From the NCBI GenBank assembly GCA_000002435.2, contig CM018793.1: 64,000 bases of DNA. The stretch is one strand, 5' to 3'. This document shows positions 44,798 to 64,000 of the stretch, in pieces. Position 1 is the first letter of the stretch. Every line of letters starts with the position of its first letter. This DNA comes from Giardia intestinalis. Its lineage: Eukaryota. Position numbers and translations under genes: made by a program. The notes under the pieces are model-generated. The model made no database searches and was not told the origin of the DNA. It saw nothing but the letters and a program-made list of their open reading frames with translations.

Positions 44798-47700
44798 CGG
44801 CACAGTGTGGAATTCCCGTGAAACCGTTCTGGCTTGTCACATCATCGCACGGGCGGCAATCGGACGGAGCAGAGACAGAGCTCTGCGTCGAGTAGTATCC
44901 CTGGCTGCACGCGCTGCATGTGGTGGCAGATGTGCAGCGGAGGCAACCAGGCGCGCAGGGGATGCATTCGCTGCCGCTTGTCCAGAAGCCCTCTGTCGGA
45001 CAGTCGCGGGGGCACAGGAGCATCCCGTCCAGAGTCAGCGCCTTGCGTCCACTCTCGCACGCCAGACAGACGACCGGGCCCACGCGATCAGCGAGGCGGC
45101 ACCTCTGGCAGCCGTCGACCCCTGTCCATCCTCCGCCTGCCCCCGCGTCGTTGCACAGCAGGCACCTGCTGGCGCTGGAGTGGGTCGGCCTGACCTCGAC
45201 GGCATTCTCGTTGCATCCTATGCACGCTATACTTTGCTCCCTACAGAGGCATTGCGGAGGGCAGATCTTGGGGACGCACTCTTCGCCGTTCCAGATGTGC
45301 TCTGGGACGCAGCTGGTGCATCTCGTGCTTGTACACGTTGCACAGTTGTCGATCGCGCACGGGATGCAGCTGTCAGCGGCCTCGTAGTACGTCATTGGAC
45401 AGACTGCATGGCAGGTCACCTCTGTCCCGGTCGAGAGCGCCTTGTAGCCCGGGAGACAGTCCTTGCACAGTGCGGGGCCCGCTACCTTCGGAGCCTCACA
45501 GAGCCTGCAGCCACTCACTCCCACCCAGCTGTCCCTGCCAGACGTGTCCGAGCAGGCAAGACAGGCTCCCAGGCCAGGCGTGGTGAACGTGCCAAAGTAT
45601 CCCTCGGCGCACTCTTTGCATTTATCAGCCCCCATACCATCGCACGTCTTGCACGCTGGGTGGCACGCAATGCAGGACGTGCTCTGGAGATAGTATCCGG
45701 CCCTGCAAGCAGTGCACGTGTTGGGGTCGTCTACGCACGCGCCGCAGTTGGGATCGGAGCAGCGCACGCAGCCCTTATCTGTCTTGGAAAAGCCTGCCTT
45801 GCATGCAGTGCACCCGGACGTCGACTCCGTGGTGTCTCCACAAATGCTCGTCCCCGGCGCCCTTTCCTTTGTGTAGCAGGCGCCCTCGAAGAGGAACATC
45901 CCGTCTCCGCAGTGCGAGCACACGCCCTTGCTGCAGATAAGTCCCTCCTTCGGCTCTGCGCACGTGCCATCCAGAGGAACCTCTCCGTCGATCAGGCAGC
46001 GCCCGCAGACGACCTGGCCGTCGACGACCACTGCATCGCGCTCATCGCAGATACCCGTGCCGGGGTACTCGCCTGCGGAGTAGCAGCCCCCCTGGTGGAG
46101 GAAGTAGCTCCCTCGGCACGCGGTGCAGCGGCCCTTCTTGGCGTCCTTTACGCATGGACCGGCAAGTGAGCGAGCTTCTCCAGGATAGAGTGTGCAGACG
46201 CCGTCGATCGGCACATAATCACTCGACGCGCACTGCGAGCACAGAGACCCGTCCATGACTGTGCAGGAGCCCCAACTGCAAGCGTCCTGCCCCACTCTTT
46301 TGCAGGGCTTCGTGCAGTATGCCCCGGCCCCGACGCCTGTCAGCGTGTAGGGCTGAATGCATTCTGTGCAGTACTTCACGTCTATCTCGCAGCTGGCGCA
46401 GTTGGAGACGGCGCAGGACATGCACGTCAGCGTCTCCTTGTTGTGACGGTAGCCGGGTCTGCACCGCCGACAGGTTCCGGCATCGCGGCCTGTTCCAAGG
46501 ACTTCGCAAATCCCACTTCCAGGAGTAGTCGTGATATCATAGCAGCCTCCCTCGTGGAAGAAGTAGTTCTCGGGACATATGACGCATAAACCGCTGGAGC
46601 ACGAGACACCATCTGGCACATCCTTTGTACACAGGCCATTTATTGGAAACTCTCCTGCAAGATTGCACTGCTTGCAATATGTGCGCCTTCCGACTGTCAG
46701 AAGCTCCCTACAAATGCCAGACCCGGGAATCGCGGCAGGGTCATAGCACCCGCCCATGTAGAGCATGTATCCGCGTAGGCACCCTGTGCAGACGCCCTTC
46801 CCCTTCTCGCAAACATAGTCTGTGTCATGCCCCGTGCAAGCCCCGTTGATCGGCCACTCGTCATCCAGCGCACACCTGGAACAGTACAGCGAGCCCATCG
46901 CCGTACAGCTGCCAGCCTTACAGTTACCAGACTCTGATCTACTGTCGTTGCAGCTTTGGATACACCGCGAGCCGTCCTCGCTAGGAATGTGCTTGTCCTT
47001 GCATCGCGTGCAGATGACCCTCTTTGGTGTCTCGCTTGGATAGCACTCTGTGCAGCCGTCAACGCCCGTGTATCCATTTGTTGCACCTGTATCATTACAT
47101 AGGATGCAGGACTCCTTTGTGGGATCGAGCAGGTCTGTGCTGTAGTACCCGGAGGCACACGATGTGCACACCCCTGCAACCGCTGAGTCGACGGCCACCG
47201 CGCAGACCACCGTTCCAGGCGAGCGTCCTATCTCGTAGCACCCCCCGGCGTGCAGGAAGAACCTTGGCCCGCAGCGTGTGCACGACGTGGGGCTTGGTGT
47301 GGCAGCGACACATTGCGATCTGATTGCCCTAGTGTTAGCCAATGCAACGCACGAGCCGTCGATCGGGACTTCCCCGTCTCGCTTGCATTGCTTGCAGATC
47401 GTGTACGGGCCCAGCGTAGCCTGGTGCTGGCTGTCACATATGGCAGTCCCAGCTGTTGCGCCTTTAGCATAGCAGCCCCCATAGTAGAGGAGGTGCGTGT
47501 CCTTGCAAGCCGCACACGTCCCGCTGGATGGGGTTGTACGGATGCAAGCGTCGTCATTTGCCTTGCACTTTCCGTCGATGATAACGCTGCTTAATAGCGC
47601 ACAGCGGCTGCATGCGAGCGTGCCGTTGACATTGCAGTATCCTGCAGCACAGGACGTGGGAAGCAATCCAACGGGGCATTCCTCAGTACATATGTTATTC

Positions 47701-50700
47701 CTCAGTGCAAATCTATCCTTGCAGACCTTACACCCAGTACTATCGCACTTCTTACACCCGGGTGTGCATGCAACACACGAGTTCCCACTGGCATAGTACC
47801 CATCCTGGCAAGAGGCGCAGGTATTTGCCGCATCGCACGTCAAGCAGTGGAGCACGCTGCAAGCAACACACTTTCCGGCCGCAAGATAGAAGCCGTCTGC
47901 GCATCCCGTGCATTTTGTTGCACTATCCTGGCACGTCTTGCAGCTCTTATCACACATCTGACAGAACTCAGCAGACTCATACATCCCATCCGGACACTTA
48001 GTAAAGCATGCAACCGTTGCAGGACTTCCATCCTTGGTTATCTGGAATGACTTAACACCCTGTTTGCACGACCTGCAGATGCCATCTCCCTTGACGGTGC
48101 AGTCATCCGAGACCTTGCACTCCCCATCAACGGGCACCTCATCCTTCTGCTTACACTTCGCACAAAACGACCCTGCGCCCGATGTCACGACATCCTGGGC
48201 GTCGCAGATGTCCCCCGCCTCGAACGACCCCGCTTCATAGCAGCCACCCTTGTACTTGATGTATCTGTGGGTGCAGTATTTGCAGGTGCCATTAGCTTGT
48301 TTATATTGTATGCACACGCCTGCGGCCACTGAAGCACACACGCCGTTGACTGGGCCCTCGGCGTCAGCAGCGCACTGGGAGCAGTAGAACGTGCCCAGGA
48401 CATCACACTTGTCCTTTCTGCACCTGTGCTCCTTGGGGTCTGCCTCTGCCTCAACGCACGTTTGCACGCACTCCGTTCCCCCGTTCATTGGTCTGTAGAA
48501 CTGCTCGCAGGCAACACAGACCAGGAGTCCGTTGGAAACCTTGCAGCTCTTGCAGTGGGGTATGCCCTTCAGCGTGTCGCTGTTCTCTGTGCACGGAACA
48601 CACGAGTCGCTGATACTTGAGCGGTCGGGGGGCGCGTAGTATCCCTCTTTACAAATATCACAGATCCCATTGTCAGATCCGATGCTTTTGCATAGTATAG
48701 TTCCGGGAGCAAGGTCTGCTGAGACACAACTCCCTTTAAGCAGAAAATGATTGTCAACACAATAATAACATCGTCCAGTAGGCACACGGGCCAAAACGCA
48801 CGGAGAAAGCTTGCTGTCAGACATAGGAATGCAGTGCCCATTAACTGGCAGATCAGATAAAATGCTACATCGGAAGCAATACGTCACGCCATCCATTACA
48901 GCATACTCGCCACAAATGGCGTTTCCTGGATAGGTCTTTGGATTATAGCAACCATTCTTATAATAAAAGAATAATCCTGCGCATCCAGTGCATGTACCAT
49001 TTGGCACACCCGACTTCTTACATATATTCTCCTTATCGACACTAGTACATTTGCCATCGATAAGAGCATCTGTATTCAACGCGCACTTTGAACAAAAGGT
49101 AGCTCCAAGCACATTACAAAAATCAACGGCACACTGACCTGATCTAGGTTGTAGCGAGTCAGTCGGGAGAGGGCAGCTTTCCTCGCATACACCGTTAACC
49201 AATAAATAGCGATCTAGACAGCTTGTGCAGTGTCCTGGACCAGAGATTAGGGGAGCTAAACACGTTCTACAAAAAGCTATACCGGTGTAGCCGAAAATTC
49301 CACCTACATCGCTACAGTGAATGCACGATTGAATCGTTGAGCTTCGAACAGGATTGAGATAATAAGTTGGTCCACATACTTCGCAAACGCCTGCTCTTGC
49401 TTTAGTGCATATCTGTGGATAAAATTCTGGTGTAAAGCAAACTGTACGGTGCAAGAAATATCCAGCTCCACAACCAGTGCACACTCCCTCTTTGCACGTA
49501 TTTCCATAAGTTTCGGTGGTGCAAGATCCGTTAATAGGATATTCTGTTTCGAGAGTGCATTTCTTACAATATGTAAATCCATAACCTGTAAGTGTGTGTT
49601 CCTTTTCACATATCGGTATTACTGGCTTAATCGTATTGTAACATCCACCGTAGTAGAGAAGATAGCCTTTTGAGCATCTCCGGCATCTACCGCCCTCCAT
49701 AACAGCACACTCGGGAGCATCTTCCCGTAGAGGCCGGCAAACCCCATCTATGGGAACCTCACGTTCTATACTACACCTTTCGCAGAATGTCTTATCACGA
49801 ACAACACATCCTCCGTAAATGCAGCCCCCAGGCGTGAGTTCCTCCGTGCAAGCTTTAACACATGAGTCCTTACCTTCATTCTTTTGAAGCTGATAACTAT
49901 AAGCGCAACTATTGCAAACGTCCACGCCCCCATCACAGTTTACGCAGTACTTGATGTTACATGGTCTGCATTCTGATCCAACATGGGTATATCCAGAGGC
50001 ACAAACTGAACAAGTAGCTGTGTCGTCGACATCCTTACAAATACTGAGGCCGATGGGCGTTCCTTTTTCATAGCATCCTCCTTTGTAAGGAAAATACCGA
50101 GGTGGACACTCTGTGCAGCGGCCAGATACTACTTTGGCGCCCATTAAGGCAGATGTGCACTGTCCATTTATGGGGCACTCATTATCATTTGCGCAACAAG
50201 AACAAAGTGCAGACGAGAAAATGTTGCAATGATCAGACTTACATGACCCCGGAGCAAGACCGTTTGTCCAGCACGATATTTCGCAGTGATTTTCTGTTAG
50301 GAGATATCCCCTTTCGCAGACTGTGCATTGCGCTCGTTGGCCTCGTGGAAGAGGTAAGCATTTTGCACAGTGAGCTATGCCAGCGTTATCGTACTGAAGA
50401 AGTACATCATTACAATACTTGCACATACCTTTCCCCATCGAAAACACTTGAAAGAATATTTCTGGAGCACAAGAAGTACAATCATTCGCGTTAGGACCAA
50501 GGCATGAAGCACAATTTGAATGGCATGGAATACAATCTCCTCTGTTGCGAAAATAGTTGTCTACACACGCTTTGCATTTCCCAGCATTATCCACCTCGTT
50601 ACATATGACGTTTCCTGGAGCAGATTCTGGGGAATAACATCCACCTTGGTAAATGAAGTAATTCTTACCACAAGAGGTACACTTAATAGAGACAGGTGTT

Positions 50701-51812
50701 GGTAGACCGCCGGCTGAATCTCGACAACCAGAAGTTACAACTAGCGGATTATTGTATGGCACACATACTCCGTTGATTGGAACGAAACCAGGCGTACCAC
50801 ATTTCGCACAAAAGGTTGCACCCCTAATATCAGTAGTGTAGGCACATGCCTTAAGTCCTAGCTCAGTATCCACACGATAACATCCGCCTTGAAAAAGGAT
50901 GTATCCCTTTCCACAGTTATCACACATTCCCAACGAGATGGATATATGGAGACAAATATTCTGGTCATTAGAAGTGCAAACTCCGTTAATCGGTACTTCG
51001 GTGCCAAGAGAACAGTGGGCACAGAGTTTGTTCTCAAAAGCAGTACATCCATCTTCAGCACACTTTCCAGACTTGGCTATTTTACTTTTATCACAAGTGA
51101 GAATACATGTACGAGTCTGTGAATCATATGAATAGTTATCAATACAAAGAAGACACTCATTAGGCGTTGCACCCGTACACATCAAGCAATTGCTAGGGCA
51201 AGTAAGACACTGATTTCCAGCCAAATAATATTGTGCTTGACAAGAGAGGCATTTCAAAGAATCACTGGTACTCATTGTACAAGAGCGACAATTTTCTATA
51301 CCGTAAGGTTTATCTGAACACCTTTTACAGAGAGACCCATCAAGAAAACGATCCGGAGGACAACTCAGGCACTGATTTTCAGAACTTCCAGAACAAGAAC
51401 TGCAGTGAGCATGACAGGTCTTACAAGTCTGAGGAGTTGCTTGAGTGTCGAGATAGTAACCTAAAGAGCATATTTTGCAAAGATTCCTGGCTAGATCAAC
51501 GCAAATAAGATTTCCAGGACTATAAAGTATATTGTAACACCCGCCCTCATGAATGAAATAATTCTTTTCTACACATGAAGAACAGGTTTTAGCAGAGTTT
51601 TTAAGAGGCTTACCTGCCTCAGAAGCGCAGCCGGAGGCCACAGCCCTGGGGTCGTCGTACGGGATACAGAGTCCGTTTATAGGAACCTCACCAGGGGTGG
51701 CACACTCAGAACAATACCGGCCCTCTAAAATAGTGCATTTTCCTATAGCGCACTCTCCAGGTCGATTCCCATGGGTACATGAGAGTGCAAGTCCAAAAAT
51801 GATCGCCAGCAT
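44223..51812 (-). CDS. High-cysteine membrane protein (HCMP, VSP-like), 2,529 aa. The 3' 575 nt lie in the left inverted repeat.
   Basis: Signal peptide 'MLAIIFGLALSCTHG'. Hundreds of CXXC / CXC motifs. A recurring 'GGCY' motif (YQGGCY, FQGGCY, LYYGGCY, ...). A single C-terminal TM 'ITGITLGVTVLVGGTIGLTFSLMA' with a short tail 'SKHKSQASGLRPLTA'. This is HCMP-like rather than VSP-like because there is no CRGKA ending. ATG at 51812 with AT-rich upstream. Stop TGA at 44223-44225. Composition switches from AT-rich codons (5' ~3.1 kb) to very GC-rich (3' ~4.4 kb) near 48650. Confidence 0.9.
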   Translation of the reverse strand: MLAIIFGLALSCTHGNRPGECAIGKCTILEGRYCSECATPGEVPINGLCIPYDDPRAVASGCASEAGKPLKNSAKTCSSCVEKNYFIHEGGCYNILYSPGNLICVDLARNLCKICSLGYYLDTQATPQTCKTCHAHCSSCSGSSENQCLSCPPDRFLDGSLCKRCSDKPYGIENCRSCTMSTSDSLKCLSCQAQYYLAGNQCLTCPSNCLMCTGATPNECLLCIDNYSYDSQTRTCILTCDKSKIAKSGKCAEDGCTAFENKLCAHCSLGTEVPINGVCTSNDQNICLHISISLGMCDNCGKGYILFQGGCYRVDTELGLKACAYTTDIRGATFCAKCGTPGFVPINGVCVPYNNPLVVTSGCRDSAGGLPTPVSIKCTSCGKNYFIYQGGCYSPESAPGNVICNEVDNAGKCKACVDNYFRNRGDCIPCHSNCASCLGPNANDCTSCAPEIFFQVFSMGKGMCKYCNDVLLQYDNAGIAHCAKCLPLPRGQRAQCTVCERGYLLTENHCEISCWTNGLAPGSCKSDHCNIFSSALCSCCANDNECPINGQCTSALMGAKVVSGRCTECPPRYFPYKGGCYEKGTPIGLSICKDVDDTATCSVCASGYTHVGSECRPCNIKYCVNCDGGVDVCNSCAYSYQLQKNEGKDSCVKACTEELTPGGCIYGGCVVRDKTFCERCSIEREVPIDGVCRPLREDAPECAVMEGGRCRRCSKGYLLYYGGCYNTIKPVIPICEKEHTLTGYGFTYCKKCTLETEYPINGSCTTETYGNTCKEGVCTGCGAGYFLHRTVCFTPEFYPQICTKARAGVCEVCGPTYYLNPVRSSTIQSCIHCSDVGGIFGYTGIAFCRTCLAPLISGPGHCTSCLDRYLLVNGVCEESCPLPTDSLQPRSGQCAVDFCNVLGATFCSKCALNTDALIDGKCTSVDKENICKKSGVPNGTCTGCAGLFFYYKNGCYNPKTYPGNAICGEYAVMDGVTYCFRCSILSDLPVNGHCIPMSDSKLSPCVLARVPTGRCYYCVDNHFLLKGSCVSADLAPGTILCKSIGSDNGICDICKEGYYAPPDRSSISDSCVPCTENSDTLKGIPHCKSCKVSNGLLVCVACEQFYRPMNGGTECVQTCVEAEADPKEHRCRKDKCDVLGTFYCSQCAADAEGPVNGVCASVAAGVCIQYKQANGTCKYCTHRYIKYKGGCYEAGSFEAGDICDAQDVVTSGAGSFCAKCKQKDEVPVDGECKVSDDCTVKGDGICRSCKQGVKSFQITKDGSPATVACFTKCPDGMYESAEFCQMCDKSCKTCQDSATKCTGCADGFYLAAGKCVACSVLHCLTCDAANTCASCQDGYYASGNSCVACTPGCKKCDSTGCKVCKDRFALRNNICTEECPVGLLPTSCAAGYCNVNGTLACSRCALLSSVIIDGKCKANDDACIRTTPSSGTCAACKDTHLLYYGGCYAKGATAGTAICDSQHQATLGPYTICKQCKRDGEVPIDGSCVALANTRAIRSQCVAATPSPTSCTRCGPRFFLHAGGCYEIGRSPGTVVCAVAVDSAVAGVCTSCASGYYSTDLLDPTKESCILCNDTGATNGYTGVDGCTECYPSETPKRVICTRCKDKHIPSEDGSRCIQSCNDSRSESGNCKAGSCTAMGSLYCSRCALDDEWPINGACTGHDTDYVCEKGKGVCTGCLRGYMLYMGGCYDPAAIPGSGICRELLTVGRRTYCKQCNLAGEFPINGLCTKDVPDGVSCSSGLCVICPENYFFHEGGCYDITTTPGSGICEVLGTGRDAGTCRRCRPGYRHNKETLTCMSCAVSNCASCEIDVKYCTECIQPYTLTGVGAGAYCTKPCKRVGQDACSWGSCTVMDGSLCSQCASSDYVPIDGVCTLYPGEARSLAGPCVKDAKKGRCTACRGSYFLHQGGCYSAGEYPGTGICDERDAVVVDGQVVCGRCLIDGEVPLDGTCAEPKEGLICSKGVCSHCGDGMFLFEGACYTKERAPGTSICGDTTESTSGCTACKAGFSKTDKGCVRCSDPNCGACVDDPNTCTACRAGYYLQSTSCIACHPACKTCDGMGADKCKECAEGYFGTFTTPGLGACLACSDTSGRDSWVGVSGCRLCEAPKVAGPALCKDCLPGYKALSTGTEVTCHAVCPMTYYEAADSCIPCAIDNCATCTSTRCTSCVPEHIWNGEECVPKICPPQCLCREQSIACIGCNENAVEVRPTHSSASRCLLCNDAGAGGGWTGVDGCQRCRLADRVGPVVCLACESGRKALTLDGMLLCPRDCPTEGFWTSGSECIPCAPGCLRCTSATTCSACSQGYYSTQSSVSAPSDCRPCDDVTSQNGFTGIPHCAVCAADRARAGVTCHACAEGYGLSGGSCSPCTAAGCARCDGGVCTSCKRGWHLAGDRCLACPSPCAACSSAASCLACADRYFQATPLGGPRDCVPCDQTAPQGLRMAGIHGCGLCQAQAGSGAVLCLRCADGNLPLENYCGGSSVKRRLGPGAITGITLGVTVLVGGTIGLTFSLMASKHKSQASGLRPLTA

Positions 51813-54362: not shown

Positions 54363-57300
54363 CTACCGTGCTTTTTCGAAGGGAAGTAACAAGCGAATAA
54401 TTTCAGTTCTTTCTGCCTTTATAGCCAAATCAAGTGCAGTAGCCCCGTCAGCCCTCTCCACGCCAGATTCGTATTCTCTGAGCACACTTACGGCATTTTT
54501 GTTTCCCATTTGTGATGCGAGCATTAAGGCTGTTGTACCATCTGGCCTGACACATCCTACATGGCGCAACTGTCGCCTCAAAACTCCAATTGGTGCATTC
54601 GAAAGTACAGCTCTCATCAGAGGAGTATCATCATGGTGTTCTTTAAGTAGAGCATCGCCATAAGAATCTTCGGTCTCGATCTTATGATTCGTTGCTGTAT
54701 TAATGGAGGAAGCAATGCCAGATGAAGACTCTAGATATCCATCTAGTTTCCTATCTGCCATGAGCATTCTTAGCTTCTTATTAGTTTGAGAAAGAGCATC
54801 AAGTCTTTGTAATGCTCCATCATGCTCCTTGCTTAGCTGCTCATATGACTCCTTATACTCACTTAAATGGTTTCTAGTGGAAATAAGTTGCTGTTCGATA
54901 TCATGGACCTGCCTATTTAGAGCTGTCGTCGTTTCATCCATATGAGATTTGAGATTGATAAATGAATGCACTGTTCTATTCAGTTTATCTTGTAATTCCT
55001 GCTTCTCTGACTCTAATAGCTCAACTGTACTAGATAAATTAATATCAGGCTCGGTAGCAGTGTCTGTCTGTGTCTGCGCTATAAGTGCTGTTAATGCTAG
55101 GTTTTCGTTAGCAAGTTGAGAAGCAGATGTGCGTAACTCTAATTGCTCTCTACGAGCTACCTGAAGCTCTGATGTGATATTGGACAGTTCCCTCTCAAGT
55201 TGAAGCCCTCGGCTAGTTTCTAACTCCAGCTGCCTCTTGGCAGATTCTAATTCTATAGAAATCTCGTAATTCTTACCCTTTAGTTCATCTTTCTGTTGTT
55301 TGAGGTCCAGTAACTCTGCATTCCTCTTGTCACTTATAATGTTATCATGTTCAGTCAAAGCTATGCGCTCTTGAAGCTGATTTTCTGCCTTCCTTAGCAA
55401 TGCTGTAACGGTGCTTATTTGATTTTCCTTTGAAGCTAGCTCTTCACGAAGATACCGTATTTCGTTCTGATGAATAGATAGCTCATTCTCAGCGTTATCT
55501 ATGATATCACGTGTCGCTTCAGTTTCTAGTAATTCATGACGTAAAGAGCGATTGAGAAGTTCTGTCTGGTGCAACTTAGATTGTATAGATGCCATCTGAA
55601 TACTCAGATGTTGGACAGTTTGAACAAGTGAGTTAGGAACGGCTACTTTATCTACTTCTGTGTATTTTTGTATTGAGTTGGAAAGTGTGCGACTGAGAGA
55701 TAAATGGTTAAATGCAGAGTTTCTTGCATCTGTGCTTATATTACAAAGATCTAATGCTGAATCTTCCTCGTTTCCACCACAAATACTCTGTAGCAGCTCC
55801 GCATATTGTATCCCCGAGAGTGTTATAATAGAATCAGCAGGAGAAAGCTCCGAATAACAGTCATGTAAAGATACGTTCAGATCGCTCTTCTTTACCGTGG
55901 TTGTTTGAGAAGTGCTCCGGGGAACTATAATGTTAACAATACTCGGGTCAGCATCATATTCATTAATCTCATTCAAATTCTCTGCTTGTTGCATTATAAC
56001 ATCGCGTGCTGGCTGGTTGTCAACGTCTGCATTGGAATGCAATTTTGTTGATGTAGACTGATATATTGCTGTTTGAACAATCTTGTCGCTGAATTGTATC
56101 ACATCGTGGTTTTCTAAATTATCCACGGTTTGAGTCTCTGTTGAAATAGCATTTTGGCGTTGCAAAATGGTGCGCCGCAACTCAACTAATTGTGCATTAA
56201 CATCTAAGAGCTCATCTTGTAACTCATCATTTCGTATCTGTAATTCCTGTCTATTTTTAATTATAGAATCAGATGCATCTCTTGCACGTTGAACTTCACT
56301 TTGCAATTGCTGGATTCGAAGATCCTTTTCTTGCACTTCAAGGTTAAGCTTATGGATATGCTGTTGAAGCGTTTCTTCAGTCGTTTTGTTCGCTGACGCT
56401 AATAGCTGACCTGCTATTTGCTCATTTGCAATGGATAACTTATTCTGAAGGTCATCATTTTGAGTATTGAGGGAGTCACATAATTCCTCAAGGTAACGTA
56501 GTCGTGCAGAGGTATCAGATGTGGGCACATGTCCTTTGACATCATGTTCTTGAGATAAACTATATAGGCCTTTTGGAGCAGAGGCTATTTGGGTTTCTAG
56601 TTGTAAACTGGAAACATGAGGCTCAGGATTGGCCGATCCGGATGTATCTAGATGTACAAGTACAGATGAAAGTTGTATGGTATCTGAATCTGATATCGCA
56701 GGACGTTTGTCTGTCTGTGTAAGAGTTAGCACGTTGGCTGATTCTTCTAAATCTAAATAGTCTCGAATAATGTGTGTCGTCTGTCCATATGCATTATCTG
56801 ATCCACTAGACCTAGAGATACTTCTAGACAATATTAGGCTTTGAGCCATGATAGACCGATCAACCAGTTGACATGATTGATCCGAGATTTGTCTTAGCTT
56901 CTCTGATAGCTGCACAATCGTATCATTTGCTAACAGCAGATCGTGTTCTGCTTGGGTATTCAGAGCAATTTGTTCAGTAAGTTGAATAATTTGAACATCC
57001 TTGGCTTTAAGTAAAGGTATCATCTCCTGTAGGTTCTCTACTTCTAGCATCTTTTCTTCTAACTGTTTTTTTAAATCGACTAGGTCATCTGTCGAGTGGG
57101 CAGATGCAACAGTCTCGTATTCTGCTAATTTTGCATCTAAAATGTGAACCAGTTTGGATAGCTCATCATTCTCATCTCTCACTTGCTGTAGTTCTAACAT
57201 CACGGATTTGACATCAGTATTATCAGAAACATCAGCAAGTTTATCAGACACTGCACAATCTGGGGTACGTTGTAGCTCTTCCTCCCGACGTTTCTCTAAC

Positions 57301-59345
57301 TCTGTGATTTGCTCCTTGCTCTTTCTGAGCTCATCTTCTACAGATAACTTTGATAGCTTAACCTCCTCAAGCTGAAGAGAAAGGCTGGCTATCATTCTGG
57401 ACGTTCCTGAGGCATTTGTTACCTGACTAAGCTCCTCCAAGTCACGAATCTTCAAACGCTGATCATCAATAAGCTTTTCCTGTTCTGCCACTTTATCTCT
57501 TAGTTGGGTGATTGTCTCATCAACGGGAAATACTTCATTAACTGCGCTTTTTTCTAAAAATCTATAAATACTACTGTTCTTATCTATAACAATCGATGGA
57601 CTGGAAAACAAATTTGGAGCATTTAAGTCCAAGCCAAGACAATCGTTTTCCTGCATGCTTTTCAGGGTGTTCATAGATGCTCCCGATAGTCCACCATTAG
57701 GGCTAAGTAAAGAGTTGGTACTTTGAGAATCCTCCAAAATACTGCTCAGATCAGTTGGAGCAGCAATAGTAATCTTGGGTGACTCAGAGACTGCAGTTAA
57801 CACGGCGGAATTGTGGACAACCGAGGGTATGCCTGTGTGCTCATACGGGCTTGCAGTCCTAGTGAGTTGTCGTGAGGGTTCAATTGGAGAAAATGATAGA
57901 GGTTCTTCCTTTAATAAAAGAATAAGAGATTGTAAAACAGAAGACATTGCATCTGGTAGATTGGAATCGTAAATATTTGCAGATTGCACTAAAGCTTTAA
58001 GAGATTGGATTAAACCAGTGTGTTCTTGCGTCAGTGTATTAAGCTGTTCAGCCTGGTGCTGTGAGAGAGACTCGTGCTCAGACAACCGGGCCGTGAGATC
58101 AGTGATTGCTTTTTCCTTTTCTTCTAATTGGCCAAACAACAAACTGATTGCATCGTCTTCTTGTGTGAGTACCTGTTGAATATTTCCATTCTCATCCGTC
58201 AAAATAAGCTCCTTAGGAGCCTGCTCTGTATTCAGGCCAATGTTATCAGAAGCTATAGTCATAGAAGTGGACGCAGACTTGCGTTCAATCTGAATTTCTG
58301 CCTTCAAGTCAGTAATAGTCTTAGTTAGTATAGCAATAGTTCCATTTCTGAGCTCTAGCTCTTGATTTAGCAGAGCTATTTCGGCTTCCAACGTAACCTT
58401 GGCTGCTTCGTCGCTAGTTATCAGAAGGGGGTCGTTTTTAAGCAAAATATGGCCAATTTGCGATTGCATTTCTGATAGAGACAGCCGTAATCGAGTGTTT
58501 TCCTTCATTAAAGAGGCCAATTCAGGAGTTTGATTAGTCTGTAAAGATGCAGACTTAACTACTTGTTCTCCCGATGAGGTAATTATTTTATGGTCTAAAA
58601 TGTGGGCGCCTATTGTTAGAGATGCTACTTGTAATCTGAGACGTTCCAATTCTTCTTTTTGTGAACAAATAAGTGATGCTGCTGGGTATTCTTGCAACTT
58701 CCCATGTATCAATGACTCCAGCTGTTTCATCTCGTTATTCTGTCGAACAAATACATCACGAAGAACCGTGTTTGCATTCAGAAGCGCTTTGAGATCGTCG
58801 CGCTGCCGTACAACAAGAGATTGAAGGGAATCCAATTGAACATAAGCCTCAGACAGCTCGCTAACCATCTTCTTGACCTGCTCAGCGTTATACTCCTGAA
58901 CGCACGCAACGGTTTCAACCCGAAAGAGGAGTTCACCACTACCTTCACTGTCAGTGGAATTCTCCGTAGGAAGTTCCTTACTATAATACTGAGCCATAGC
59001 TCTCATAGCACGATAGCTACGAGACCAATGTGCCACATTGTATGCGGTGTATAGGTCCTTTAGGAGAATGTGGCCTTCCAAATCCAATAGGCAAAGACAC
59101 ACTTCCGGATTATCAGCTTCAGCAGCAAGCATTAGTGCTGTATAGCCCCGGTTGTCACAACAGCCTGCCTCGTGCTGCTTGAGAATATGCACCATACGAT
59201 AATCATTGCGCATTGCAGAGTACATAAGGCCTGTGAGACCGCTGGGAGTCTTAGTTCCCTTGTACCTAGCAAGGGAATGCTGAACAACTGCATAATCGGA
59301 CCGAAGAATGGCGTCAAACCAGCCTTCTTCATTCTCAATTAGCAT
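54363..59345 (-). CDS. Ankyrin / long coiled-coil (~1,300 aa) / ankyrin protein, 1,660 aa (Protein 21.1 / GASP-180-like family)
   Basis: 'MLIENEEGWFDAILRSDYAVV' plus N-terminal ANK repeats, a very long heptad region, and C-terminal ANK repeats (TALMLASQMGNKNAV..., TALDLAIKAERTEII). ATG at 59345 after 'ccgaaaaATG'. Stop TAG at 54363-54365. Confidence 0.85.
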   Translation of the reverse strand: MLIENEEGWFDAILRSDYAVVQHSLARYKGTKTPSGLTGLMYSAMRNDYRMVHILKQHEAGCCDNRGYTALMLAAEADNPEVCLCLLDLEGHILLKDLYTAYNVAHWSRSYRAMRAMAQYYSKELPTENSTDSEGSGELLFRVETVACVQEYNAEQVKKMVSELSEAYVQLDSLQSLVVRQRDDLKALLNANTVLRDVFVRQNNEMKQLESLIHGKLQEYPAASLICSQKEELERLRLQVASLTIGAHILDHKIITSSGEQVVKSASLQTNQTPELASLMKENTRLRLSLSEMQSQIGHILLKNDPLLITSDEAAKVTLEAEIALLNQELELRNGTIAILTKTITDLKAEIQIERKSASTSMTIASDNIGLNTEQAPKELILTDENGNIQQVLTQEDDAISLLFGQLEEKEKAITDLTARLSEHESLSQHQAEQLNTLTQEHTGLIQSLKALVQSANIYDSNLPDAMSSVLQSLILLLKEEPLSFSPIEPSRQLTRTASPYEHTGIPSVVHNSAVLTAVSESPKITIAAPTDLSSILEDSQSTNSLLSPNGGLSGASMNTLKSMQENDCLGLDLNAPNLFSSPSIVIDKNSSIYRFLEKSAVNEVFPVDETITQLRDKVAEQEKLIDDQRLKIRDLEELSQVTNASGTSRMIASLSLQLEEVKLSKLSVEDELRKSKEQITELEKRREEELQRTPDCAVSDKLADVSDNTDVKSVMLELQQVRDENDELSKLVHILDAKLAEYETVASAHSTDDLVDLKKQLEEKMLEVENLQEMIPLLKAKDVQIIQLTEQIALNTQAEHDLLLANDTIVQLSEKLRQISDQSCQLVDRSIMAQSLILSRSISRSSGSDNAYGQTTHIIRDYLDLEESANVLTLTQTDKRPAISDSDTIQLSSVLVHLDTSGSANPEPHVSSLQLETQIASAPKGLYSLSQEHDVKGHVPTSDTSARLRYLEELCDSLNTQNDDLQNKLSIANEQIAGQLLASANKTTEETLQQHIHKLNLEVQEKDLRIQQLQSEVQRARDASDSIIKNRQELQIRNDELQDELLDVNAQLVELRRTILQRQNAISTETQTVDNLENHDVIQFSDKIVQTAIYQSTSTKLHSNADVDNQPARDVIMQQAENLNEINEYDADPSIVNIIVPRSTSQTTTVKKSDLNVSLHDCYSELSPADSIITLSGIQYAELLQSICGGNEEDSALDLCNISTDARNSAFNHLSLSRTLSNSIQKYTEVDKVAVPNSLVQTVQHLSIQMASIQSKLHQTELLNRSLRHELLETEATRDIIDNAENELSIHQNEIRYLREELASKENQISTVTALLRKAENQLQERIALTEHDNIISDKRNAELLDLKQQKDELKGKNYEISIELESAKRQLELETSRGLQLERELSNITSELQVARREQLELRTSASQLANENLALTALIAQTQTDTATEPDINLSSTVELLESEKQELQDKLNRTVHSFINLKSHMDETTTALNRQVHDIEQQLISTRNHLSEYKESYEQLSKEHDGALQRLDALSQTNKKLRMLMADRKLDGYLESSSGIASSINTATNHKIETEDSYGDALLKEHHDDTPLMRAVLSNAPIGVLRRQLRHVGCVRPDGTTALMLASQMGNKNAVSVLREYESGVERADGATALDLAIKAERTEIIRLLLPFEKAR

Positions 59346-59638: not shown

Positions 59639-61684
59639 ATGGAGAATGACGAGCGGAAAGCCAGCCTGTCAAGCCTTTTGAGGGAATTAGAGGACAATGC
59701 AGCCCTCAGGCTAAGGTGCTTAGCTCTTGAGGAAGAGATCCAGCGGCTTAGTTTAGTCTTACAGAATACACAACAGGCAAATGATATCTTCTCTCCAAGA
59801 CTCAATGACACTAGCAATACTGCAAATATTCCATGTGGTCTCTGCACTAGCATGCTTCCAAAAGTAGCAGAATTGCAGGGAGTAGTCAACGTGCTAAATG
59901 TAGCCGTAAAGGAAGCCGCGGCGTCTAATGACACACCATCATACCGGATTCCATCAACACTAACAGAAAGCCTCAGAGAGGATATTAGAAATGCTTATCT
60001 TTGGCTCCAACGGATGCTGGAGGCACATTCAGAAGAAATCCAAGAAGATTGCAATCTGAAACAAATATCTATAGAGATACTTAAATTGCTTGCGCAGAGG
60101 GGGGAGCATAATAAGTTACTAGAAAACTACAAAGCCTTGGCTGCTGAAAATGCCGAACTTATGAAACGTATTACACAGCTAGAATGTAGAGACAGAGTAG
60201 GGACAGTAGGTGAAAGGTACGAGGAGGACAGCGAAAAAGTTATGCCAGCTGAATGTGACGTTAAGTTATTAAACGATCAGATAACCACTTTGACTCATCG
60301 CGTCGAAGCTTTAACATTTTCGAACAGGTCTCTTAAGAACGAGTTGCTAATTAAAACAAAAAGTGCATCAGCTTTAGAGTCTAAGCTTGAGAACTATATT
60401 GCCATACAGCAAAGCTATCTGGCTGTATGCGACAAGATAGAGGAGCTATGCGAGCGCACCGTTTACAGCAATAGAGAAGATGATGCCAATCTGAATAATA
60501 ATTTATTAGTTCACAATATTTGTAATACTCTGACAATCGTAGCAGATCAGCTATTTGAGATCTCTGCCCTATTCACTCAAACCAGCCCTGCAGAAATGCA
60601 GCCAGTCCTTCATCAACAACCCCATTCCTGGGGAGTAACTAGCATAATAGCCCGGTGTGCTCAGCTTAAGGATATTAACCAAAGGCTGCAAATAGAATTG
60701 GAAACAACAAAATATGAACAGTTGCATAAATTTAAGGAGCAACAGGAAATAATTGGTGCTAAAGAGAGGTATATAGAAGAGCTACTTACGAAATTATCAA
60801 TAGAAAATACTCTGTGTGCACATAGTACCGATTCCCATCAGTCACCCCTTTCAGACAGCATCGACGATGTAAAAAATATTGAAGATCTACAGAAATTTAT
60901 AGAACACTTAGAACACACAGAAAGATCTACGGCCACTTTGAGCATAAACTCTTTGAAGCAGATTTTGGCCGCCGCAAAGTCTAACTCTCTGATGGCTGAG
61001 AGTGTATTAACTAGCATATCGTCATTACGAAATGATTTACCCATAGATACGTTGAGAAATCTATCAGTAACTCTGTCAACCGGTATCCGGGATGGCACAG
61101 AGCATTCTCTATCCATTGTCACGACATCAGAAGGAACTAATACTCCAATACGTTTAACTGAGAAGGAATACCATACCCTAAAGGAAACGATTTCTGGCTT
61201 GACCCATTTATTGTTGTGCTCCTCTGATACCCTTGGGGATCAAAAAGTTGAAGAGGAGTGTGAAGCTGAAGGATGTGGTGAACGTGACTATGTACTCGAA
61301 AATAAGCAATCTCCTGGCTCAATAGAAGAAGAGTTGCCCTTGGAAGAGACAAGCAAGGTGGCCTTAAGTGAAGCTGAGAGTATATTGTTGGATAAAGGTA
61401 AAAGCGATATAGCAAGTGAAGATAAAGACACAAGTCCTCCAGAGCAGTGCTCTTCTGACTCTGGAAAAACCACTGAGAAAGGTAGCACAAGCAAACCAAC
61501 TATAATAATTAAATCCTTGAAAAAGCCTGCCCATCAGAAGCGAAAAATAAGTGTCTGTCTTTCATCACCAAGTTCAAATCAGAGCTCCCAGAAGACGATA
61601 GACTCAAATTCCGAGGATGAGTTCAGCAAAGAAAAGTCTACAACAGATAGATGGAGGGCCCTAGATACCGAAGATATATGGTAA
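59639..61684 (+). CDS. Coiled-coil protein with an acidic, Ser-rich C-terminus; hypothetical; 681 aa
   Basis: ATG at 59639 after 'ctgatacaaaagtttATG'. Heptad-rich N-terminal two-thirds. No catalytic motif. Confidence 0.7.
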   Translation: MENDERKASLSSLLRELEDNAALRLRCLALEEEIQRLSLVLQNTQQANDIFSPRLNDTSNTANIPCGLCTSMLPKVAELQGVVNVLNVAVKEAAASNDTPSYRIPSTLTESLREDIRNAYLWLQRMLEAHSEEIQEDCNLKQISIEILKLLAQRGEHNKLLENYKALAAENAELMKRITQLECRDRVGTVGERYEEDSEKVMPAECDVKLLNDQITTLTHRVEALTFSNRSLKNELLIKTKSASALESKLENYIAIQQSYLAVCDKIEELCERTVYSNREDDANLNNNLLVHNICNTLTIVADQLFEISALFTQTSPAEMQPVLHQQPHSWGVTSIIARCAQLKDINQRLQIELETTKYEQLHKFKEQQEIIGAKERYIEELLTKLSIENTLCAHSTDSHQSPLSDSIDDVKNIEDLQKFIEHLEHTERSTATLSINSLKQILAAAKSNSLMAESVLTSISSLRNDLPIDTLRNLSVTLSTGIRDGTEHSLSIVTTSEGTNTPIRLTEKEYHTLKETISGLTHLLLCSSDTLGDQKVEEECEAEGCGERDYVLENKQSPGSIEEELPLEETSKVALSEAESILLDKGKSDIASEDKDTSPPEQCSSDSGKTTEKGSTSKPTIIIKSLKKPAHQKRKISVCLSSPSSNQSSQKTIDSNSEDEFSKEKSTTDRWRALDTEDIW

Positions 61685-61686
61685 CA

Positions 61687-63882
61687 TCATAGTATTTTAT
61701 TAGAAAACCTCATGTTTACGTAGTCACACGTTTCCTTGGTAAATTGATATCTCTTAGACAAGTATAAGACCCCTTCTAAATCCCCATCAGAGCAGAGCTG
61801 TACCACAAAGCTATGTAGAGCAGCCTGCAGAAGCCATTTGCGCGTCTCAGCGGATTCACCCGATACGTCCCGACTCAGCATAAGGTTGACTGCATCACCA
61901 TAAGCTTTTACACGCATCTCCACGTCTGTGCTAAAAAGACAGGTATGCTCATATGCCCTCGAAGGCATGGAGTACGCTTTGGTATAGTGTGTGAGTGGCC
62001 GCACCGATTCATTTAGGCGACATGCAGGGCCTTTATGTCCAGGTAGATCAGTGGCCAAGGGTGCTTCCGATTCACACTGCTCCTTAAAGGCGTCGCCAGG
62101 TGTGTCACTGTCAGATAGCGTTTGAGAGCTGTGGTTACTAGTATCAGCTACATTACTTACACCGGTGTTTATCAGTAGGTGAGACAGAGTTGAAGAAGCT
62201 TCATATAGAACGTCGAAAGCACCTTGTTGATGCAAGGATGGTTTAGCCCCGAAGCTCCTCTCTATAGGTCGTTGATGAGTTGAGCAAGAATTTGCTCTAG
62301 AAAGTAAGCCTTTCGGGACTTGACTCCACAAGTCCTTTACGCATCTTTTCGCAGCACTCTTCAGAATGTGATAATCTGGTTTGGGAGTGGTAGAAACAGT
62401 AACATTGAAAAGTTCTGTAGTTGCAGTAATAGAGTAGTGATCTGTATTAGGCTCATTCTGGATTTCATTCGCTAAAGGGTTGGACTGTTTCAATTGAAGT
62501 GTGATGGTGAGCTTTGTTTCAGATGTCAGTGAAAGGTTTTTGCGTAGCATTCGTAAATAGAGTTCTGTGATCAATGGAGACACAGATTTGTCTAAAGAAA
62601 TATCGTCTTGTAGAGAGTGCACTTGTCCAGGAAGAGGTCTAGTCAGTATGCTGAGGCGCCTTAATGCCTTTGAAGATAGCGTTTCTGTAGACTTTTTGTG
62701 TATCTGTTTGCTTTCCAAGGTGTTGAGGAAAAGCTTGCGAGCTCTAGGTTGAAGCCCTTCTGTTCTGACAGGAAAAAATCCTTTCGATGCGTCATCAGTG
62801 CGCCCCTTCAGCATGGAAATTAGCTGCTTCGCTTGGTCTACGCTAATTATTTGGCAGATATCTCCAATTTGTGCACTTAGAATCTCTCCACACTTGGTAA
62901 TTCCAAGTTGTTCAGCAAATTGCTGCTCTACCTCTGAAGAAAGGCCTGGAAGAAAAGACAGAGGTCTATTAATTAACAGTGTTCTACAGGTAGATGACGT
63001 AGCAGAGAATATTCCATTAGAACCGGCCAGCTTTGTGGCAATTTGAGCTGCAAAGAGGGAGTCACCAAATCCCAAGGAGCAATGCAAGCCAGTCTCTTGA
63101 AGAACACGCTGTTGCAGTTGTAACCCTAGTGCTAAGCAACTATTACCATTAGCTGCAGAAAGACTAACGTGGCCCGATAAATCTAGAACTGCCTCGTTGT
63201 AATTCATGGGCATGATAGCTTTGCTGAACTGGCCAAGAACTTTAAATAACTCCTGACCTTTAGTATTATACATTTTGGTATCATAGCTTAGAACCTGAGT
63301 AGTGGGACAGCGTTCAAAGGCCTCTCCTACCGTCATACCAGATTCAATTCCCATTTGCTTGGCAGCCTTGGTACAGTCCAGAATAATAGCTCCATCGTTG
63401 GCTTCCTTGCTATCAAATTGGTTGGCAATAATAACGGGTGCTCCAATCAACCGTGTTCTTTCATTAGAAGACAGAAAGCTTAAGGAGGAAGATATGAAAA
63501 ATGCATCAACGTATACGTGACAAAGGACATACATGTTTTTTGAGTGTATTGGAGTGGGACCTGTTGGAGGGTGCGTTAAAAGATAGTCAGTCATTTCGAG
63601 TTTCCACGCAGACATCTGCTGATCAAAATGTTGCTTTTTGCATACAATTGGAGTTGCCCTATATGTATTTGTGACGCCGACATTTTTGTATTTAATGGAT
63701 GGGCCTCCTATGAACGATCCGCTCATCAATCTGGATCTTGGGCGCAGAAAACGCCATTGCAATAGACTCTTAGCCACTCGCATCCTTCCCTCTCTAGTAC
63801 ATTGATAGTAGTCCGCTTTGTTGAGAAACTCCTCTGGGGAAGACGGAAGCTTTTCATTTAGTAACGCCTCAATGGCCTGCAA
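61687..63882 (-). CDS. Y-family (DinB / Pol kappa-like) DNA polymerase homolog with substitutions at two of the three catalytic carboxylates; a probable pseudo-polymerase
   Basis: Collinear Y-family blocks. 'HVYVDAFFIS' aligns with HVDMDAFYA. 'LDCTKAAKQMGIESGMTVGEAFERCP' aligns with NYHARRFGVRAAMPGFIAKRLCP. 'MPMNYNEAVLDLS' aligns with MAMSLDEAYLNIT. 'SLGFGDSLFAAQIATKLAGSNGIF' aligns with SAGIAPNTMLAKVCSDKNKPNGQ. 'LPGLSSEVEQQFAEQLGITKCGEI' matches the HhH region. The Asp of motif I is Tyr here, and the SIDE Asp is Asn. The ORF-track start at 63882 is TTG. Candidate ATGs are at 63783 and at 63534 ('caaaaaacATGtat', 6 aa before motif I). There is an N-terminal extension of about 117 aa, like the Pol kappa N-clasp. 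Confidence 0.7.
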   Translation of the reverse strand: MQAIEALLNEKLPSSPEEFLNKADYYQCTREGRMRVAKSLLQWRFLRPRSRLMSGSFIGGPSIKYKNVGVTNTYRATPIVCKKQHFDQQMSAWKLEMTDYLLTHPPTGPTPIHSKNMYVLCHVYVDAFFISSSLSFLSSNERTRLIGAPVIIANQFDSKEANDGAIILDCTKAAKQMGIESGMTVGEAFERCPTTQVLSYDTKMYNTKGQELFKVLGQFSKAIMPMNYNEAVLDLSGHVSLSAANGNSCLALGLQLQQRVLQETGLHCSLGFGDSLFAAQIATKLAGSNGIFSATSSTCRTLLINRPLSFLPGLSSEVEQQFAEQLGITKCGEILSAQIGDICQIISVDQAKQLISMLKGRTDDASKGFFPVRTEGLQPRARKLFLNTLESKQIHKKSTETLSSKALRRLSILTRPLPGQVHSLQDDISLDKSVSPLITELYLRMLRKNLSLTSETKLTITLQLKQSNPLANEIQNEPNTDHYSITATTELFNVTVSTTPKPDYHILKSAAKRCVKDLWSQVPKGLLSRANSCSTHQRPIERSFGAKPSLHQQGAFDVLYEASSTLSHLLINTGVSNVADTSNHSSQTLSDSDTPGDAFKEQCESEAPLATDLPGHKGPACRLNESVRPLTHYTKAYSMPSRAYEHTCLFSTDVEMRVKAYGDAVNLMLSRDVSGESAETRKWLLQAALHSFVVQLCSDGDLEGVLYLSKRYQFTKETCDYVNMRFSNKIL

Positions 63883-64000
63883 CCTAGTAACGGCTGCAGA
63901 CTCGAAATATGCATCTGGCGACTCGTCATGATTTATTGTTTCGAACTGAGCACTCTCAACTAACCGTTGCTGCGAATGACTATCGGTAGCGAAATAGTTA

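Follow-up and report, generated by a model that had tools for sequence, protein, structure and literature searches.

A probable scaffold-only Rev1 ortholog with a predicted inactive polymerase site in Giardia intestinalis

Introduction

Rev1 is the BRCT-containing Y-family "deoxycytidyl transferase" of translesion synthesis (TLS). An arginine of its N-digit (R324 in yeast) pairs with the incoming dCTP, and a leucine (L325 in yeast) evicts the template base. Genetic work with engineered alleles has long been taken to mean that Rev1 is important chiefly as a scaffold, with its dCMP transferase required for no more than a few lesions. Here, we describe a minus-strand gene at the edge of a 64,000-nucleotide stretch of Giardia intestinalis DNA (contig CM018793.1 of assembly GCA_000002435.2; the whole stretch is referred to below as the window). 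The gene encodes a Rev1-like protein that is under purifying selection and in which two of the three catalytic acids of Y-family polymerases are replaced.

Several described systems are close to the one considered here. Yeast Rev1 made catalytically dead by the D467A/E468A substitutions continues to perform most TLS and to regulate Pol zeta, and scaffolding is considered to be the primary function of Rev1 (PMC13250573). In human REV1, the D1202/L1203/E1204 loop of the C-terminal domain (CTD) forms, together with tail residues Y1244 and L1248, the interface with REV7 (PMC8468184, PMC5773155). Bacterial ImuB, which belongs to the ImuA'-ImuB-DnaE2 mutasome, is a Y-family homolog without catalytic residues; as an adaptor, it connects the sliding clamp to an error-prone polymerase (PMC6511836, PMC11791113, PMC10421592). 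The concept of a catalytically dead Rev1 or Y-family scaffold is already known, both from engineered alleles and from ImuB.

The Giardia protein shares with yeast Rev1 and human REV1 a BRCT domain, an N-digit helix, palm, fingers and thumb, and a C-terminal helical domain, all in the same order. It differs from them in several ways. Its predicted inactivation arose naturally and extends over many positions (one D replaced by Y and another by N, Y by K/T/A, R by K and K by G), and the N-digit Arg-Leu pair is lost as well. UBMs are lacking, the candidate CTD is shorter (about 16 residues are missing before the last helix) and barely recognisable, and the little finger cannot be recognised in G. 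intestinalis and does not exist in Giardia muris. The behaviour expected of such a protein is that of the engineered dead yeast allele, i.e., support of most TLS and regulation of Pol zeta. The logic of a dead Y-family adaptor is also that of ImuB; however, ImuB is bacterial, belongs to another branch of the Y family, and carries beta-clamp and RecA-NT motifs where the Giardia protein has a BRCT domain and a candidate Rev1 CTD. The two are of independent origin, a case of convergence and not of membership in one group.

Results

The gene extends beyond the window

A first-pass annotation of the window, made from its letters and a list of open reading frames (ORFs), had placed the gene at 61687..63882, where a 731-codon ORF is found on the minus strand. 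That ORF is truncated by the window edge. Upstream of 63882, the reading frame stays open to the end of the window (last full codon at 63999) and contains neither a stop codon nor an ATG, and the window translation is identical (100%) to residues 98-867 of XP_001709271.1/A8B5P1, an 867-residue protein of G. intestinalis WB currently annotated with the generic name "DNA damage repair protein". The true start lies about 291 nucleotides past the window end, leaving residues 1-97, with the BRCT domain, outside. The TTG start of the 731-codon ORF is an artefact of a bacterial-code ORF caller; a start at this codon was rejected, given the open frame and the match from residue 98 of the annotated protein onward. 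An ATG at 63929 was rejected on the same grounds and is, moreover, out of frame. Full-length numbering is used throughout (ORF residue i corresponds to residue i+136). The part of the gene within the window is as follows:

61687..64000, minus strand: Rev1-like gene, residues 98-867; stop codon, 61687-61689; continues past the end of the window

NCBI models of the protein range from 865 to 868 residues. In many assemblies, automatic gene calls begin at the internal Met52, giving 807-817-residue forms. Because this start cuts through the BRCT domain, domain inventories built on these forms would miss it.

The protein is most similar to Rev1

Pfam IMS (PF00817) matched ORF residues 123-284 over the whole model (1-148 of 148), scoring 112.6 bits against a cut-off of 23.2 (E 2e-32), so the first-pass assignment to the Y-family polymerases was correct. 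The affinity to DinB and Pol kappa suggested along with it did not hold. Human REV1 was the best single-sequence match in the PDB (phmmer, E 1.4e-14), and a profile of Giardia orthologs matched full-length yeast Rev1 (8tlq_B) with an E-value of 9e-25 in two stretches, one covering the BRCT domain and the other extending from the N-digit helix through the thumb. With the single sequence and with the profile, matches ranked in the order Rev1, Dpo4/DinB and then, far behind, Pol iota and Pol kappa; the chains of the latter were the weakest of all (E 0.6-0.8) and contained no significant stretch. The palm/fingers/thumb fold is common to the Giardia protein and DinB, Dpo4 and Pol kappa, and about 215 residues align with Dpo4, but a BRCT domain and an N-digit are lacking in those enzymes. 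A DinB/Pol kappa-type protein with an N-clasp was therefore rejected.

The BRCT domain was recognised by PF00533 (8.7e-9, residues 17-88) and PF16589 (1.9e-7), within residues 17-99 of the full-length protein, and aligned with the BRCT domain of yeast Rev1 in 8tlq_B. It is part of a 258-residue N-terminal region that precedes the palm and fingers. The extension of about 117 residues that had been likened to the Pol kappa N-clasp is only a portion of this region, and corresponds to the Rev1 N-digit and a linker, preceded by the BRCT domain outside the window. In the profile alignment, which begins at HLSAWK, Giardia MSAWKLEMTDYLL stands opposite the yeast N-digit HLSAWKANLKDKFL. In the register upstream of SAWK, which is an ungapped extension, yeast R324 corresponds to F222 and L325 to D223 in WB (L/D or L/T elsewhere), so that the S-R-L motif is replaced by H-F-D or by Q-L-D/T in the Giardia assemblages. 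This Rev1-specific motif, S[RK]L upstream of motif I, was found in 144 of the 152 closest non-Giardia homologs (most of the others are N-terminal fragments) and in none of the Giardia sequences. Those of the closest homologs that carry a name are called REV1 or deoxycytidyl transferase. As judged from these matches, the protein is the Giardia ortholog of Rev1.

Two features lie between the BRCT domain and the palm:

63571..63636, minus strand: remnant of the Rev1 N-digit helix, residues 219-240, KQHFDQQMSAWKLEMTDYLLTH; SAWK kept, S-R-L motif lost
63745..63903, minus strand: conserved helical region, residues 130-182, between the BRCT domain and the N-digit; many columns invariant among assemblages, and alignable with G. 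muris

No family match was obtained for residues 130-182 (ESAAVTRLQAIEALLNEKLPSSPEEFL...LLQWRFL). They differ from the yeast M1 motif, since the latter sits upstream of the BRCT domain.

The active site is predicted to be dead

The Y-family core of the protein comprises the following features:

63031..63516, minus strand: palm and fingers (Pfam IMS), residues 259-420, supported by PF00817 (2e-32) and by hhalign against Rev1 cores
63496..63519, minus strand: motif I, H258-V-Y260-V-D262-A-F-F265; the first catalytic Asp (Dpo4 D7, yeast D362) is Tyr, TAC at 63511-63513
63358..63378, minus strand: dNTP-binding segment of the fingers, D305-C-T-K308-A-A-K311; Dpo4 Y48 is K308 and R51 is K311
63193..63204, minus strand: motif III, N363-Y-N365-E366; the Asp (Dpo4 D105, yeast D467) is Asn, AAC at 63196-63198, and the Glu (Dpo4 E106, yeast E468) is kept, GAG at 63193-63195
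63022..63024, minus strand: G423, in place of the palm Lys that is invariant elsewhere (Dpo4 K159, a dNTP phosphate contact), placed by the homolog alignment
62776..62991, minus strand: thumb with helix-hairpin-helix, residues 434-505; weak IMS_HHH match (E 0.04), inside the Rev1 and Dpo4 alignments

When the Giardia profile was aligned with Rev1 cores by hhalign, an E-value of 1.4e-39 over 242 columns was obtained. The ortholog profile placed HVYVDAFF opposite HIDFDCFF of yeast Rev1 (D362 to Y) and NYNEAV opposite SIDEAV (D467 to N, with E468 retained); phmmer against the PDB likewise placed NYNEAVLD opposite Dpo4 SIDEAYLD (D105 to N). Thus, of the metal-binding carboxylates D7, D105 and E106 of Dpo4, represented in WB by Y260, N365 and E366, only the Glu is left. 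The first-pass annotation had reached the same result by manual alignment, reading V-Y-V-D and N-Y-N-E as the loss of two catalytic acids out of three. The alignment was not shifted: the hidden Markov model (HMM) alignments and the ortholog profile place no acid at D7 or D105. The triphosphate binders of Dpo4, Y48, R51 and K159, are replaced as well, by K308, K311 and G423.

To see how unusual these residues are, 155 non-Giardia homologs, collected in an exhaustive HMMER scan of 1.8 billion representatives, were aligned to the Giardia profile. The column of Dpo4 D7 contained Asp in all 132 homologs aligned there, as did the column of D9 (132/132). Tyr was found at Y48 in 151 of 155 homologs and Arg at R51 in 154 of 155, while D105, E106 and K159 were occupied by Asp, Glu and Lys, respectively, in every one of the 155. 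A different pattern was observed in Giardia. At D7, D9, Y48, R51, D105, E106 and K159, the five G. intestinalis assemblages have, respectively, Y/Y/Y/C/H, D, K/K/T/A/A, K, N, E and G. A sequencing error was rejected as the source of the substitutions, which are conserved across the five assemblages. Positions 260 (Y/C/H) and 308 (K/T/A) drift among assemblages and therefore look released from constraint. At N365, the codon varies synonymously between AAC and AAT, and at G423 between GGT and GGC.

The protein is thus predicted to lack deoxycytidyl transferase activity. This agrees with the earlier suggestion of a catalytically dead polymerase, for which the case appears stronger than first put, the equivalents of Dpo4 Y48, R51 and K159 and of yeast R324 also being lost.

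Catalysis was apparently lost early in the Giardia lineage

Full-length, syntenic orthologs were found in five G. intestinalis assemblages, at 98, 80, 65, 63 and 57% identity. At these loci a TMEM18 gene lies upstream, and a coiled-coil-like gene lies tail-to-tail downstream; the eL30 product encoded in the syntenic locus is identical (100%) to Giardia ribosome chain 7PWG_c. An uninterrupted ORF of ca. 2.6 kb is present in all five assemblages and in many isolates, and that of the G. muris ortholog is likewise uninterrupted. This ortholog (TNJ27705.1, 641 residues) aligns from the BRCT domain through the thumb and then again at the C-terminal domain; the 262 residues between thumb and C-terminal domain are absent, with about 56 low-complexity residues in their place, and there is no little finger. 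Scrambling is seen in its motif I (HVHDAGLV), and the positions of D7, Y48, R51 and K159 are occupied by H, E, G and P, although the D-E pair of motif III is kept. The active-site substitutions noticed in WB are therefore shared by the orthologs, as Y/Y/Y/C/H together with N in the five assemblages and as a similar decay in G. muris.

A word-indexed protein search returned almost nothing beyond Giardia. The closest non-Giardia homologs are GIQ83870.1/GIQ82139.1 of Kipferlia bialata and two uncultured sequences, P0045 and P0046 (E 1e-29 to 1e-44). P0045 comes from a JGI metagenome and P0046 from a Logan assembly; both probably represent free-living or other fornicates. These proteins look like active enzymes: in all of them, the DxD and DE carboxylates and the Y, R and K residues are kept. 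P0045 and P0046 also keep an N-digit motif, SRLHH, and have a C-terminal DGDLE motif in common with Giardia; a segment after the N-digit, LL..PP.GP.P, is common to Giardia and its fornicate relatives. With relatives that possess a full active site on one side and the decayed G. muris ortholog on the other, the Giardia lineage appears to have lost catalysis before G. muris and G. intestinalis diverged. The D-to-N change in motif III came later, in G. intestinalis.

Selection on the gene was estimated by the method of Nei and Gojobori as the ratio of non-synonymous to synonymous substitution rates (dN/dS). The ratio was 0.15-0.22 for the whole gene and 0.12-0.18 for the N-digit/palm/fingers/thumb part. 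In comparisons of WB with the other assemblages, it rose to 0.37-0.49 in a linker (residues 661-765), while in C-terminal residues 766-867 it was 0.055-0.07, the strongest constraint in the protein. For WB versus assemblage E, the least saturated informative pair (dS 0.58), dN/dS was 0.13 in the core, 0.37 in the linker and 0.07 in the C-terminal domain. Codons of invariant residues N365, G423, K311 and D837-L838-E839 vary synonymously. Given the low dN/dS and the synonymous variation at invariant residues, we conclude that the gene is maintained by purifying selection and is no pseudogene.

The C-terminal half contains a constrained helical domain

Three segments can be distinguished after the thumb:

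62311..62766, minus strand: possible divergent little finger (PAD), residues 509-660; a candidate, with an alpha/beta pattern in a low-confidence model
61996..62310, minus strand: variable Ser-rich linker, residues 661-765; dN/dS 0.37-0.49, 15% Ser, poorly conserved across assemblages
61690..61995, minus strand: conserved C-terminal domain, residues 766-867, in which a predicted four-helix bundle comes after an invariant HYTKAYSMPSRAYEH motif; candidate Rev1 CTD

No Pfam family matched after the thumb, and IMS_C (PF11799) was not found there. In the low-confidence full-length model, residues 509-660 form a helix-strand-strand-strand-helix pattern; their helix-strand match to the PAD of Rev1 relatives scored 17.8 in hhalign, within the range of column shuffles (14.6 +/- 2.7). 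Ser makes up 11.7% of residues 501-867. The first-pass description of a Ser-rich C-terminal half with no visible PIP or UBZ motif stands in these respects: PIP, APIM, UBZ, UBM and FF elements were sought and none is conserved across orthologs, nor was there a match to PF14377 or a conserved L-P core of a UBM. That half is not featureless, however. It ends in a helical domain of about 100 residues, constrained at a dN/dS of 0.06, whose similarity to the Rev1 CTD is above chance.

AlphaFold2 modelled residues 766-867 alone as four helices with a predicted local distance difference test score (pLDDT) of 70.8. For comparison, a canonical Rev1 CTD profile was prepared from 93 sequences gathered by jackhmmer from a mammalian CTD within the homolog set; Giardia and fornicate sequences were not recovered among the 93. 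In hhalign, AALHSFVVQLCSDGDLEGVLYLSKR was placed opposite the alpha2-loop-alpha3 segment (human LQVVKYCTDLIEEKDLEKLDLVIKY), with P = 6.6e-4. The score was 22.7, compared with 10.4 +/- 2.0 for column shuffles (maximum 16.3; 0 of 200 reached it) and 9.9 for a reversed control. When the canonical profile was run over all 867 columns, the region of residues 766-867 was the single best match. Within the alignment, D837-L838-E839 (61774-61782) falls on D1202-L1203-E1204 of human REV1; a low-confidence extension brings F862 and I866 opposite human Y1244 and L1248. PF16727 (Rev1 CTD) did not match, Pfam searches of C-terminal fragments at E<=10 gave nothing relevant, and fold searches were non-specific and did not recover the Rev1 CTD.

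Just before the helical bundle lies HYTKAYSMPSRAYEHTCLFST (residues 768-788; 61927-61989, minus strand), which hardly varies among the five assemblages and of which G. muris retains a part, RGYAFPRRAY. It matched no known motif, and its pLDDT in the domain model is about 40-50.

Proposed function and alternative explanations

We consider it probable that the protein is the Giardia ortholog of Rev1 turned into a scaffold-only pseudo-polymerase. A fuller version of this proposal has, in our estimate, an even chance of being correct; it states that Giardia Rev1 was pared by selection to a scaffold, was dead before G. muris and G. intestinalis split, is without UBMs and, in G. muris, without a little finger, and is kept for its BRCT domain, a polymerase-shaped shell and a Rev7-type C-terminal domain. 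Only the non-catalytic job of Rev1 would then be retained. The BRCT domain, possibly with the polymerase shell, would bring the protein to stalled replication or to the clamp, and the C-terminal domain would serve to bring in a second polymerase, for which Pol zeta, via Rev7, is the likeliest candidate. Rev7 is proposed because the Giardia loop with the highest conservation lies, in the alignment, on the Rev7-contact loop of human REV1. A non-catalytic role in the manner of Rev1 had been suggested in the first-pass annotation, and it is still the best reading; what was offered there as an analogy is better described as orthology.

Several observations weigh against the scaffold proposal. Resemblance to the Rev1 CTD is confined to a short stretch, with 25 confident columns and an HHsearch probability of 27%, and an HMMER profile of the C-terminal domain found no match in the PDB. 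UBM, PIP and RIR motifs are not conserved across the orthologs, so that the usual contacts with PCNA and ubiquitin are not visible. Catalytic inactivity is a prediction from sequence. The full-length AlphaFold2 model, computed from six Giardia sequences, has a mean pLDDT of 35.5 (highest in the thumb, 66-74) and is too poor for inspection of the active site; the residue mapping therefore rests on HMM alignments. Finally, the published literature gave nothing informative on Giardia Rev3, Rev7, Pol eta, Pol kappa or TLS.

Among other explanations, the one that deserves most attention, though we think it unlikely, is that a dead Rev1 was repurposed outside Pol zeta-dependent TLS, as a BRCT-based damage or fork adaptor or as a binder of structured DNA, with a CTD that contacts a lineage-specific partner. 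The weak match to the canonical Rev1 CTD, which fold searches miss, would fit such a change of function, as would the absence of UBMs, the dispensing with the little finger in G. muris, and the fact that neither the invariant HYTKAYSMPSRAYEH motif nor residues 130-182 have a counterpart in known families. Human Rev1 is also reported to unfold G-quadruplex DNA without nucleotidyl transfer (PMC3950705). Yet the best-conserved loop aligns exactly with the Rev7-contact loop, in a match that is co-linear and above shuffles, and fornicates with intact Rev1 cores share the DGDLE motif, which suggests that the domain is the ancestral Rev1 CTD of the lineage and no novelty.

The remaining alternatives are much less probable. 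That the protein is an active nucleotidyl transferase with non-canonical ligands, e.g., D262, E366 and N365 holding a single metal ion, seems highly improbable to us. D262 and E366 do not vary, selection keeps N365 in place (AAC/AAT), and the palm, fingers and thumb are fairly strongly constrained (dN/dS 0.13); but substitutions are found at five otherwise invariant residues of the active site, the three triphosphate binders among them, two of these positions drift freely, the templating Arg of Rev1 is lost, and the G. muris ortholog does without a little finger and has a scrambled motif I. Moreover, none of the 155 homologs tolerates a substitution at the D, E or K positions, and D-to-A or D-to-N changes here are the standard route to a catalytically dead Rev1 (D467A/E468A, PMC13250573). 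Still less credit can be given to a decaying relic, i.e., a functionless unitary pseudogene in the making. The lost catalytic residues, the long variable linker and the large deletion in G. muris could be read in this way, but the selection analysis contradicts it (dN/dS of 0.15-0.22 overall and 0.06 in the C-terminal domain, with synonymous variation at invariant residues), and the ORF is intact in five assemblages, in many isolates and, at 641 residues, in G. muris. Least probable of all is an inactivated enzyme of the DinB/Pol kappa type with an N-clasp. The Y-family core is indeed collinear with Dpo4/DinB (PDB E ~1e-13), but Pol kappa is the weakest match (0.6-0.8), Rev1 is the best by single sequence and by profile in a match that includes the BRCT domain and N-digit, and the closest homologs are overwhelmingly Rev1.

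Significance

A lineage that drops the chemistry yet keeps Rev1 under purifying selection would provide independent evolutionary support for the scaffold view of this protein. If the scaffold proposal is true, Giardia would offer a natural experiment showing that selection preserves Rev1 for a non-catalytic function, and would delimit the minimal Rev1 scaffold. By this comparison, the UBMs, the N-digit Arg and, in G. muris, even the little finger would be dispensable parts, while the BRCT domain, the shell and the C-terminal loop are kept. The protein is also a pointer to a so far unstudied pathway of translesion synthesis or damage tolerance in Giardia, which is relevant because the front-line drug metronidazole damages DNA.

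A literature search returned no report of a naturally inactive Rev1 or of active-site loss in Giardia, and of the publications found that mention Giardia together with translesion synthesis, none studies it. The sole mention found is a figure legend of a preprint (bioRxiv 10.1101/2025.09.02.673565) that names "Giardia Rev1-like proteins".

Neighbouring genes

The downstream neighbour of the Rev1-like gene (window positions 59639-61689) is a plus-strand ORF of 681 residues with no Pfam match, which ends 2 nucleotides from the Rev1-like stop codon, tail to tail. The two genes abut within 1-2 nucleotides in all five assemblage loci, and each gene's 3' processing signals must therefore lie inside the other. 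Farther away, matches to the Giardia variant-specific surface protein family (PF03302, E 2e-171) occur in 17 stretches of a 2529-residue minus-strand ORF (44223-51812), whose product is of the variant-specific surface protein-like/high-cysteine type and unusually long. Between the two lies a minus-strand gene for a 1660-residue ankyrin-repeat protein (54363-59345; Ank_2, 2.8e-21), which is syntenic in other assemblages.

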